From Gemmatimonadota bacterium (GTDB lineage Bacteria; Gemmatimonadota; Gemmatimonadetes; Gemmatimonadales; GWC2-71-9): a stretch of 64,000 nt of DNA. The translations under genes were made by a program, and so were the position numbers. Below the pieces are notes generated by a model. The model saw only the letters and a list, made by a program, of their open reading frames with translations. It did no database searches and was not told where the DNA came from. Location of the stretch: assembly GCA_039587315.1 (NCBI GenBank), contig JBDHIS010000021.1:1972-65971 (forward strand). The letters run 5' to 3'. Positions 8,235-52,715 of the stretch are shown piece after piece; position 1 is the first letter of the stretch; each line of letters opens with the position of its first letter.

Positions 8235-9596
8235 CTAGTGGGTGGGGCGGCGGATCTTGCGGTAGAGAGTGCGGCGGTCGATTCCGAGGATGTCGGCTGC
8301 CTGACTGCGGTGGCCGTGGGTGTGGTCGAGCACGGCCCCTATGTACTCCTGCTGCAGCCGGTCGAGCGACCAACCCTCGTTGATGGGCTTATCCCACGAG
8401 GATTTGTGAGGCCCCGGGCCGCCTGCGGGCGGGGGCGGCACGGCGGCCGGTCCGGAGGTCGCCACGACGAGCGCACGCTCCACCCAATTCCGCAGCTCGC
8501 GCACGTTGCCGGGCCAGTCGTACGCCGAAAGGCCCTCCATCACCGGCTCCGGGATATCCACGGGCTCCATGCCGAGGTCAGCGGCGATCGTGTCCCGAAA
8601 GTGCAGCACCAGCAGCGGTATGTCGGCGCGTCGCTCCCTGAGAGGGGGCAGCTGAATCGGGAACACGTTGAGCCTGAACCACAGGTCCTCCCTGAAGCGC
8701 CCTCCGGCTACCTCCGCTTGCAGATCCACGTTAGACGCGGCAACGAGACGGAAGTCGATCGGCATGTCGTGAGCGGCGCCAACCCGCTGGATGGTGCGCT
8801 CCTCCACCGCCCGCAGGAGCTTGGCCTGCATCGGCAGTGTGAGAGTCTCGATCTCGTCGAGGAAGAGGGTGCCGGAGGCGGCTTGCTCGAACAGACCTGA
8901 TTGGCTCACCACGGCGCCGGTGAAGCTCCCCTTGGTATGCCCGAAGAACTCGGACTCCAAGAGTTGCTCGGGCACGGCGGAGCAGCTCACCGGCACGAAC
9001 TTCTTCCCCCTGCGGGGGGATAGCTCGTGGATGATGTGAGCCATCAACTCCTTGCCCGTTCCCGTCTCGCCGCTCAGTAACACGGTGACACGGGTTGGGG
9101 CCACCTGCTCGGCCAGGTCGAGCACGCGGTCGACTGTTCGCGTGGTACCGATGAACGGCGCCGTGCCGTTCGGGCTGCGCCGCCGGAGGCGCGCTACCTC
9201 GCGGTGCATGTCGGCCTGCCTGAGGGCGCGCTCGCATCTCAGCACGACCTCACCGATCTCGAACGGTCGTGTGATGTAGTCAGTGGCGCCCATCTGCATC
9301 GCGTTGACCGCGGTGCGTACGTTGTCGTCGGCTGCTATGACGATGACCTGAGCGCTGGAGTGGATGGCGCGGGCCTTGATGAGGAGGCAGAGGCCCTCCT
9401 GGCCCGGTTTGCAAGCGGCGAGCACGACCATGTCGAAGTCGCGCCGGGCCAGCTCGTCCATGGCCCGCTGCCCGCACGGCGACACCGACAAGGCACAGCA
9501 GTCGCGGCCAACCGCCGCGCGTGCGACTGCCAGGCCTTCCGACTCGTCGTCGTCGACGACGAGGATCTGCGGCTGACGGGCAGAATCGGCAGCCAC
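8235..9596 (-). CDS. sigma54-dependent enhancer-binding protein (NtrC family) with a degenerate receiver domain
   Basis: Walker A GETGTGKE, a GSFTGA loop (GAFTGA variant), an AAA+ core and a C-terminal Fis-type HTH (ILGIDRRTLYRKI). The start was set at the GTG at 9596, with GGGGGGAGG just upstream. Confidence 0.9.
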   Translation of the reverse strand: MAADSARQPQILVVDDDESEGLAVARAAVGRDCCALSVSPCGQRAMDELARRDFDMVVLAACKPGQEGLCLLIKARAIHSSAQVIVIAADDNVRTAVNAMQMGATDYITRPFEIGEVVLRCERALRQADMHREVARLRRRSPNGTAPFIGTTRTVDRVLDLAEQVAPTRVTVLLSGETGTGKELMAHIIHELSPRRGKKFVPVSCSAVPEQLLESEFFGHTKGSFTGAVVSQSGLFEQAASGTLFLDEIETLTLPMQAKLLRAVEERTIQRVGAAHDMPIDFRLVAASNVDLQAEVAGGRFREDLWFRLNVFPIQLPPLRERRADIPLLVLHFRDTIAADLGMEPVDIPEPVMEGLSAYDWPGNVRELRNWVERALVVATSGPAAVPPPPAGGPGPHKSSWDKPINEGWSLDRLQQEYIGAVLDHTHGHRSQAADILGIDRRTLYRKIRRPTH

Positions 9597-48983: not shown

Positions 48984-50021
48984 TTGCTACTATTGAAGTT
49001 ACAGCTTGTGGCAACCTCCTCCCTGTTGCGGCGCACAGCACTCGCCGGAGTGCTCGCCCTCTGCTCGGCCCCGGTTCTCCGGGCCCAGGGGGGACTTGCC
49101 GTCACCTATGGCCGCTGGTGGCACGACTCCTCCTCCAGCACCACGCTCACCGCAGCGTACTACGCCAGGCTCCTCGGCCCGTTCGACTTCGGCCTCGGCA
49201 TGTACCACATGGACGATTCCAGGTCCGTGCTCGACCGCACCCAGACCGGAGGTGAACTGTCCCTCGCGGTAGGTCGCCGCGGCGGCGGTCTCTATGTGGT
49301 CGGCTCGCTCGGAATGGGCGTGCGCCATGAGAACGGCAACGTGGACGCGTTGTGGAGCGCCGGGGCAGGATACGGCCTCAGGCTACTCAGTTTCATCCAA
49401 CTGGGGCTCGAGGCCCGCTACAGGGTGGAGGACACCTCCGTGCGCGGTTTCTGGCGCGCCGGCCCCGGGAACCGCAAGGGATTCTCGCTCGACGCCCGTC
49501 TGGCATTGGGCCTCCCGGGAGGCGGTGGCCGCGGCGGACAGCCGCAACCGAGCGGGCCGACATACACGCCGCCCTCGACGTCGGACATCTCCGACGCAGC
49601 CCACGGCGGAGGGGTCACGGGAGAGTCGGCCGACCTCGCCGTCAACGTGGTCCAAACCGCATTGGACGCGATGGGGACGCCTTATCAGTGGGGCGGGACA
49701 GGGGAGGGTGGGTACGACTGCTCCGGCCTGATCCAGTTTGCGTACGGCGAACACGGCATCCTGATTCCCCGGGTGAGCCGCGATCAGGCCCGCGCCGGCA
49801 CCCTCATCGAAAAGGATGTGGCCGCGCTGCGTCCGGGCGACATACTCGGCTTCTCCATCGAGGGCAGCGGGGTGAGCCACGTCGGGCTCTACGTCGGCGA
49901 CGGAACGTTCATTCACAGCGCGTCGAGCGGCGGCGTAAAGCTCTCCAGCCTGACGGCCACGGATGCCGAGAGCCGCTGGTGGCGCCAGCGCTGGATCGTG
50001 GCGCGCAGGGTGCTCAATTGA
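48984..50021 (+). CDS. NlpC/P60 (C40) cell-wall peptidase with an N-terminal beta-rich domain. The start is uncertain.
   Basis: YQWGGTGEGGYDCSGLIQFAY...SHVGLYVGDGTFIHS contains the catalytic Cys and His. Confidence 0.8.
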   Translation: MLLLKLQLVATSSLLRRTALAGVLALCSAPVLRAQGGLAVTYGRWWHDSSSSTTLTAAYYARLLGPFDFGLGMYHMDDSRSVLDRTQTGGELSLAVGRRGGGLYVVGSLGMGVRHENGNVDALWSAGAGYGLRLLSFIQLGLEARYRVEDTSVRGFWRAGPGNRKGFSLDARLALGLPGGGGRGGQPQPSGPTYTPPSTSDISDAAHGGGVTGESADLAVNVVQTALDAMGTPYQWGGTGEGGYDCSGLIQFAYGEHGILIPRVSRDQARAGTLIEKDVAALRPGDILGFSIEGSGVSHVGLYVGDGTFIHSASSGGVKLSSLTATDAESRWWRQRWIVARRVLN

Positions 50022-50590
50022 CTCCCTGGATCGAGTGGGTGCCCGAGGACGAGGCGACCGGACAGCTCAAGGAGCTGTACGAGAAGCACAGTGGGCGCTT
50101 CGGAGTGGACCACATCCTCAAGATCCACTCGCTCAACCCCGAGTCGCTCGAAGGTCACTACCGCTACTACGAGCACATCATGAGGGGCCCCTCCGGGCTC
50201 TCCCGCGCGGAGCGCGAGATGATCGCCGTGGTGGTCTCTGCGGCGAACCACTGCCGCTACTGACTGAAGCACCACGGGGCGGCGCTCCGTAGACTGCTCA
50301 AGAACGACGCCAAGTCCACGGCCATCGAAACCGACTACCGGACGGCTCCCCTGGATCGCCGGGAGCGGGCCATCTGCGACTACGTGGCCAAGCTCACTCA
50401 CGAACCGCACGCCATGGAGCAGGCGGACGTGGCGGCGCTGCGTGCGGCAGGACTCGGCGACGGTGAGATCCTCGACGCGTGCCAGGTCGCCGCGTACTAC
50501 GCGTACGTCAACCGCATGGCAGACGGCCTGGGCGTGGAACTGGAAGAGTACTGGCAGCTCATCGAGAAGAGACGCCGCTCCGACCCCTAG
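50018..50590 (+). CDS. AhpD/carboxymuconolactone-decarboxylase-family peroxidase-related protein with one in-frame TGA (50261-50263); candidate selenoprotein or recent pseudogene
   Basis: Track ORFs ending at 50263 and starting at 50384 are in the same frame. Read-through gives ...VVSAANHCRY[TGA]LKHHGAALRRLL...DYVAKLTHEPH..., so the TGA sits at the second Cys of the CxxC-x3-H motif. A 17-nt hairpin begins 11 nt after the stop (10-nt spacer). Confidence 0.55.
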
Positions 50591-50621
50591 ACCCCCCCCA
50601 AATCCCACGCGTTTGGTCCCC

Positions 50622-50660: not shown

Positions 50661-50687
50661 TTAGCACTCCCTGACAGTGAGTGCTAA
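50661..50687 (+). promoter_or_regulatory. CIRCE operator (HrcA binding site)
   Basis: TTAGCACTC-N9-GAGTGCTAA is a perfect match to the CIRCE consensus, upstream of groES. Confidence 0.9.
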
Positions 50688-50737: not shown

Positions 50738-51049
50738 ATGCCTGCTACCAAGAGCAAGTCGAAGATGAAGATCCAGCCGCTGGGCGACCGCGTGGTCGTG
50801 CGGCCGCTGGAGGAGGCCGAAGAGATGCGCGGCGGGCTGTACATCCCCGACACCGCGAAGGAGAAGCCGCTGCAGGGTGAGATCATGGCGGTCGGGCCCG
50901 GCCGGTTCGAGAAGAGCGAGCGGGTCCCAATGGAGCTGGAGGCTGGTCAGAAGGTGCTGTACTCCAAGTACGCGGGTACCGATGTGCGCGTCGGCGACGA
51001 CGAGCTCCTCATCATCAAGGAATCAGACGTCCTCGCCGTAATCGAGTAG
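50738..51049 (+). CDS. groES: co-chaperonin GroES
   Basis: KIQPLGDRVVVRPLEEAE...GLYIPDTAKEKPLQGEIMAVGPG. AGGAGG lies 7 nt before the ATG at 50738. Confidence 0.9.
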   Translation: MPATKSKSKMKIQPLGDRVVVRPLEEAEEMRGGLYIPDTAKEKPLQGEIMAVGPGRFEKSERVPMELEAGQKVLYSKYAGTDVRVGDDELLIIKESDVLAVIE

Positions 51050-51065
51050 AGGACAGGAGGCATAA

Positions 51066-52715
<1,650 letters not shown>

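Follow-up and report, generated by a model that had tools for sequence, protein, structure and literature searches.

An in-frame TGA as the predicted selenocysteine codon of an AhpD-like gene from an uncultured marine-sediment Gemmatimonadota bacterium

Does the TGA at positions 50261-50263 of a 64,000-nucleotide stretch of Gemmatimonadota DNA (assembly GCA_039587315.1, contig JBDHIS010000021.1; hereafter the window) end a short gene, or does it encode selenocysteine (Sec) in the active site of a longer one? A first-pass annotation, made from the sequence alone, had proposed that two neighbouring open reading frames (ORFs) are the halves of a single AhpD-family selenoprotein gene. Here, we find that the UGA is very probably decoded as Sec in a 190-residue AhpD-like selenoprotein. 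The proposal is supported on four counts: the codon is TGA in 62 of 84 homologues, the frame is under selection downstream of it, a stem-loop specific to the TGA forms follows it, and the literature describes a CxxU selenoprotein family of the same kind.

That family was first reported from the Sargasso Sea metagenome, in which an AhpD-like protein (COG2128) with a CxxU motif and predicted selenocysteine insertion sequence (SECIS) elements was described as a new selenoprotein family (PMC1088965). In the Global Ocean Sampling data, AhpD-like proteins rank fourth in number among the selenoprotein families, the counts being 299 Sec forms and 902 Cys homologues (PMC2398784), and a 2026 review lists the "AhpD-like protein, TIGR01926, CxxU" (PMC13188914). 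The first-pass statement that AhpD-like proteins belong to the known bacterial selenoprotein families agrees with all three sources.

The reading frame and its internal TGA

Translation of the window gives one forward-strand frame of 190 sense codons between 50018 and 50590, with the TGA as its single internal stop. This is what the first-pass annotation had seen in the letters, namely two ORFs in one frame with no further stop between them. The TTG at 50018 is also the start chosen by the gene caller of the Joint Genome Institute (JGI), which splits the gene into two ORFs of 81 and 58 amino acids (50018-50263 and 50384-50590 in the window, 8946-9191 and 9342-9518 in locus L006). Because JGI calls two separate ORFs, the public annotation holds no selenoprotein at this place. 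On the translation, the stop falls at the second Cys of a C-x-x-C-x-x-x-H motif, SAANH-C79-R-Y-(TGA82)-L-K-H-H86, exactly where it had first been placed. The features discussed here are collected in Table 1.

Table 1 Window coordinates of the predicted selenoprotein gene and its features
Feature	Position	Strand	Remarks
Predicted AhpD-like (TIGR01926) selenoprotein gene, full length	50018..50590	+	TTG start; predicted Sec is codon 82; TAG stop at 50588-50590
Stop TGA of upstream NlpC/P60 gene (48984-50021)	50019..50021	+	Overlaps the TTG start (ATTGA); Pfam NLPC_P60 on the upstream product
Redox motif C79-R80-Y81-U82 (TGC CGC TAC TGA)	50252..50263	+	Last codon is the Cys column in Cys-form homologues, TGA in 62/84
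Predicted selenocysteine codon, in-frame UGA (residue 82)	50261..50263	+	TGA in other assemblies and homologous loci
His86 codon, H of C-x-x-U-x-x-x-H	50273..50275	+	AhpD profile position 137 (offset 51)
SECIS-like stem-loop in coding sequence	50274..50290	+	ACGGGGC-GGC-GCUCCGU; 7 bp (one G-U), GGC loop, 10-nt spacer

Profile searches were made with the read-through protein, with Cys placed at the TGA. The protein matches the NCBIfam model TIGR01926 ("peroxidase-related enzyme") with 167.4 bits (cut-off 81.8); of its 190 residues, 3-174 lie on positions 1-174 of the 178-position profile. It also matches the Pfam CMD domain PF02627 with 59 bits at a cut-off of 23, which we read as superfamily domain membership only, with no bearing on decarboxylase activity. 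The solved AhpD-like structure PDB 6k40 aligns to residues 9-173 (E 1.8e-34) straight across the stop, and therefore both halves form one domain. The first-pass impression that each half keeps family-like sequence is confirmed by the TIGR01926 and 6k40 matches, both of which span the TGA. The canonical AhpD model TIGR00777 gives 22.6 bits, below its cut-off of 191.95, and its alignment is limited to the 36 residues of the active-site core (58-93, on profile positions 109-144), which places C79, U82 and H86 at profile positions 130, 133 and 137. H86 is invariant among 19 aligned sequences. The model NF041238 likewise stays below its cut-off (61.7 bits, cut-off 175), with the match confined to the C-terminal part of its 357 positions.

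Nothing in particular speaks for an error of sequencing or assembly at 50261-50263. When the window's GroEL was used as a protein query, it led to contigs from four JGI metagenome samples, each of which has this gene and this TGA. The JGI samples that contain the organism are 3300041076, 3300041079, 3300041084 and 3300041087. The contigs are not mere copies of the window, because one has a single-nucleotide polymorphism at 50413, inside the gene, and another (L006) has one C more in the run behind the stop (C9, where the window has C8) and, 14 nt before the start, a mismatch. In an unrelated public run, from a marine sediment metagenome, a Logan contig matches the window letter for letter over 50158-50403, TGA included. 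The first-pass annotation had allowed for TGC turning up at this codon; with TGA in four other assemblies from different samples, some of them differing elsewhere, and in the contig of the unrelated run, we give next to no weight to an error.

Translation would also pass through the codon if the organism read TGA as sense (table 4 or table 25), and some gene callers do put Trp here in homologues. However, TGA terminates 23 of the 38 long ORFs in the window with high GC content at third codon positions, including the gene immediately upstream. The six frames of the window hold 185 TGAs flanked by 50 open codons per side, and among these the TGA at 50261 alone reaches a gene-level codon score on each flank, 0.38 and 0.33 against an average of 0.33 for true coding windows; the runner-up scores 0.13. 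The same coding-score scan of 185 TGAs in the 64-kb window gave no second selenoprotein gene on the contig. As for the Trp residues, they occupy the active-site column in 36 of the best 120 matches from a large protein database (P0002, P0003, P0004, P0008, P0047 and P0051 among them), in which the best full-length matches are only 59% identical. On each of three contigs (L326-L328), which encode two of the Trp matches, TGA stands at the codon and the database protein equals a table-4 translation. We therefore regard Trp at this column as a systematic table-4 gene-calling artefact on short metagenome contigs, one that would hide more TGA forms, and a recoded TGA in this organism as extremely improbable.

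TGA forms among the homologues and selection beyond the codon

Scans of one-genome-per-species contigs yielded 84 homologous loci. In this species-level set, the codon after C-x-x is TGA in 62, TGC in 15, TGT in 6 and AGC in 1; the first-pass annotation had suggested aligning orthologues at this column, and the alignment has TGA in 62 of 84 and a Cys codon in 21 of 84. Twelve TGA forms belong to metagenome-assembled genomes (MAGs) of Gemmatimonadota or Longimicrobiales, with 47-78% protein identity to the window, and further ones come from Acidobacteriota, Chloroflexota, Planctomycetota, Marinimicrobia, Bacillota, SAR324 and Actinomycetota. Two complete chromosomes, CP070792.1 and OZ245028.1, carry TGA forms. 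It may also be that Sec, rather than Cys, is the majority state of the clade, given the 62 of 84 homologues.

In all 62 TGA forms the frame stays open for 94-122 codons beyond the TGA. The ratio of nonsynonymous to synonymous differences per site (pN/pS) was calculated for the window together with eight orthologues from Gemmatimonadota: before the TGA it is 0.27, over codons +1 to +40 it is 0.43 and beyond these it is 0.30, at a near-saturated pS of 0.4-0.9 per site. Codons +1 to +40 hold no alternative start and can be translated by read-through only, and we conclude from these ratios that the 40 codons after the TGA are under purifying selection.

These results bear on the alternative that the first-pass annotation had itself put forward, a very recent TGC-to-TGA nonsense mutation. 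The gene would then be a pseudogene cut at codon 82, with the downstream frame as a remnant before decay; one base change is enough for this, and the JGI split into ORFs of 81 and 58 amino acids is in keeping with it. However, the same TGA is present in 61 other homologous loci, across phyla and down to 42% protein identity. Decay after the stop in relatives, which the first-pass annotation had named as a sign of such a mutation, is not seen in the set, as the frame remains open over 94 or more downstream codons in 62 of 62 TGA forms. Because the downstream pN/pS stays low (0.43 and 0.30) at a synonymous divergence of 0.4-0.9, a recent nonsense mutation is, for practical purposes, ruled out.

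Some homologues have another residue at the Sec/Cys column. Gly is found there in 6 of the best 120 database matches, and P0014 (L329 1001-1549, CP070677.1, Candidatus Latescibacterota) has a true Gly codon in the motif CDYG, its table-11 translation being the database protein. The locus L073, from a Caldilineaceae MAG, has Ser (AGC). These Gly and Ser variants may be catalytically altered or single-Cys forms. In addition, the marine-sediment runs X1, X2 and X4, near window 50229-50247, hold more distant homologues, with at least one TGA form (…TGC CAC TAC TGA AAA CAA CAC CAC…) and one Cys form (…GAC TGC GAA TAC TGT GTC…) among them. Sec and Cys versions would thus coexist in one community, because the same runs hold both.

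The stem-loop after the UGA and the selenocysteine machinery

The 17-nt stem-loop that the first-pass annotation had picked out at 50274-50290 belongs to the minimum free energy (MFE) fold, and it is as a feature of the family that it stands out. We aligned the 62 TGA forms without gaps and counted the cells of this helix (positions 14-20 with 24-30 from the U of the UGA) that form standard pairs: 79% of cells pair, compared with 32-50% in registers slid by 1-3 nt and 50.6% for the same helix in the 22 Cys or Ser forms. An unbroken stem of at least 5 bp occurs at the hairpin site in 60 of 62 TGA forms versus 10 of the 22 others, and the combined excess of stems over synonymous resamples has a Fisher p of 8e-12 in TGA forms and 0.63 in Cys forms. 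Codon choice in the TGA forms fits the pairing (Leu CTC 45 to CTG 12; Arg CGT 35, CGC 7 and CGG 5; Gly GGA or GGG 49 to GGC 1), whereas Cys forms favour the opposite codons, CTG, and CGG or CGC. Individual subgroups build the stem from different letters or shift its register, as in ACGCAG...CUGCGU and CGGCGC...GCGCCG. In the TGA forms the stem-loop begins 10-12 nt after the UGA, and the hairpin loop opens with G residues. The 4-bp lower stem that had also been proposed (50268-50271 with 50295-50298) did not hold up: it pairs in the window but is not conserved, with 41.9% of its cells paired across the 62 homologues, which is also the value for shuffles.

The E. coli fdhF element, to which the stem-loop had been likened, has a minimal upper stem-loop of 17 nt at a distance of 11 nt from the UGA, with a bulged U and a loop of the GGUC type, to which SelB binds. 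The likeness extends to a 17-nt stem-loop within the coding sequence that starts 10-11 nt past the UGA and has G in its loop. It ends there, as the window stem is uninterrupted, without the bulged U, and closes on a 3-nt GGC loop and not a GGUC tetraloop, and the two elements have no sequence similarity.

Several results weigh against a SECIS element and against Sec decoding in this organism. For the window sequence alone, the MFE of 61 nt is no better than that of shuffles (z = +0.27; against synonymous resamples, z = -0.71), and a stem this long arises in 18.5% of synonymous resamples (p = 0.185). The sequence is 67% GC, and a hairpin by itself proves nothing in GC-rich sequence; it is convincing as a family-level feature only. 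The first-pass annotation had itself cautioned that GC-rich DNA forms hairpins easily. RNAalifold returns no consensus structure for all 62 TGA forms together, because subgroups use shifted registers. The loop codon is Ala (GCG) in the window and Gly in most TGA forms, which gives the window its tight loop. A covariance-model search, which the first-pass annotation had recommended, found no Rfam family at gathering thresholds in the whole window nor any match up to E = 10 in 50200-50400. On the side of the machinery, tblastn with E. coli SelA, SelB and SelD finds no selA, selB or selD in the window or in 89 loci, and the window holds no tRNA-Sec, the tRNA scan of the 64 kb giving tRNA-Leu alone. 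Moreover, the 12 Gemmatimonadota MAGs with TGA forms are absent among the SelA matches listed from two scans, one of which required an exact 12-residue motif, and most MAGs are incomplete.

SelA itself is common in the phylum. A scan for its pyridoxal phosphate-site motif gave at least 120 loci, and those 120 are all SelA by tblastn, four Gemmatimonadota among them. A second scan, with the motif HRSNFRISGFTE drawn from these, gave 116 loci, all SelA, of which 85 come from Gemmatimonadota or Longimicrobiales MAGs. The two scans together place SelA in at least 87 species-level MAGs of Gemmatimonadota or Longimicrobiales. Within the 8-kb Gemmatimonadota selA loci (L119, L163, L212-L325) there is no selB, selD or tRNA-Sec, and selA stands alone. 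Some Acidobacteriota and Actinomycetes loci of the same scan have selB, selD or tRNA-Sec next to selA.

The doubt that remains about Sec decoding mostly concerns a UGA that is read through, or terminates, without Sec. The codon could be bypassed by insertion of Trp or Cys from a near-cognate tRNA, or the product could be an 81-residue fragment with occasional read-through, and both would suit a window that contains no genes of the Sec machinery and a short hairpin that has neither the bulged U nor the GGUC loop of E. coli fdhF. Against this, the UGA lies exactly at the redox-active Cys column, at which nearly all non-TGA homologues have Cys; the hairpin is specific to TGA forms and sits at SECIS distance; the family is a recognised Sec/Cys family in a phylum with widespread SelA; and an 81-residue fragment would miss over half of the AhpD fold, to which residues 9-173 align. 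We consider read-through without Sec improbable, and decoding of the UGA as Sec by far the better account of the TGA forms.

Predicted function, related families and gene neighbourhood

Modelled on the established bacterial Sec pathway, SelB-GTP-Sec-tRNA(Sec) would bind the hairpin at 50274-50290 during translation, and Sec would be inserted at the UGA without termination. The product would be a thiol/selenol oxidoreductase, with roles for three residues carried over from what is known of AhpD. Sec82, which we take to occupy the position of Cys133 in Mycobacterium tuberculosis AhpD, would be the nucleophile, Cys79 would act as the resolving residue via a selenenylsulfide, and His86 would belong to the proton relay. 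Probably, the enzyme acts by reducing a peroxide, or by returning a peroxiredoxin-type partner to its reduced form.

The residues encoded along the hairpin differ between the two forms: TGA forms read Gly-Ala/Glu-Gly-Leu(CTC)-Arg(CGT), Cys forms Ala-Glu-Ala-Leu(CTG)-Asn/Arg. It is conceivable, although we put this forward tentatively, that RNA signal and catalytic peptide co-evolve, with a minimal SECIS of 6-7 bp contained wholly within the conserved active-site helix (H-H-G-A-G-L-R). If true, the family would be a clean natural case in which to follow the limits that a coding-region SECIS sets on protein sequence and the way in which Sec-to-Cys switches occur.

Compared with the AhpD-like selenoprotein family ("AhpD-like 1", COG2128/YciW, TIGR01926), nothing essential differs. 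The window gene shares the hidden Markov model match, the CxxU motif, the Cys homologues and a small G-loop hairpin after the UGA; it departs from most TGA forms in its Ala (GCG) loop codon, and it comes from an uncultured marine-sediment Gemmatimonadota bacterium in which it was annotated as two fragments. With all the sequence-level features of the AhpD-like CxxU family, it appears to be a genuine member, of a kind already known, the member itself being new and mis-annotated. M. tuberculosis AhpD (TIGR00777) and 6k40 share with it the CMD/AhpD fold core and the C-x-x-C-x-x-x-H motif. However, the window protein is not an AhpD equivalog (22.6 versus 191.95 bits), the predicted Sec replaces the second Cys, and no ahpC neighbours the gene at the window locus. 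NF041238, the AhpD_rel_CFYUT alkylhydroperoxidase-related (seleno)protein, has an AhpD-type domain and Sec at the same CxxU position, but it is a separate, longer family (61.7 bits, cut-off 175). It corresponds to "hypothetical protein 1" of the Sargasso study.

The value of the finding is mostly practical: it corrects an annotation as two fragments of 81 and 58 amino acids, in a family in which many homologues carry a false active-site Trp. Together with the SelA matches, the gene fits selenocysteine use in marine-sediment Gemmatimonadota, and it adds one member to a family that is already among the most abundant selenoprotein families of marine metagenomes. We regard it as a real but ordinary selenoprotein gene, which raises no new question for specialists.

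The gene is flanked by the overlapping NlpC/P60 gene on one side and, on the other, by groES (50738-51049) and groEL (51072-52715) under control of CIRCE (controlling inverted repeat of chaperone expression). The ATTGA overlap of the NlpC/P60 stop with the start of the predicted selenoprotein gene suggests co-transcription and translational coupling of the two. Between the predicted selenoprotein gene and groES, positions 50661-50687 form a perfect CIRCE inverted repeat, TTAGCACTC-N9-GAGTGCTAA, of the HrcA operator type, preceded by a TTGACA hexamer at a distance of about 35 nt. The poly-C run at 50592-50599, right after the stop, varies in length between assemblies: the window and L007-L009 have C8, L006 has C9, and one Logan contig is 3 nt shorter at this run.

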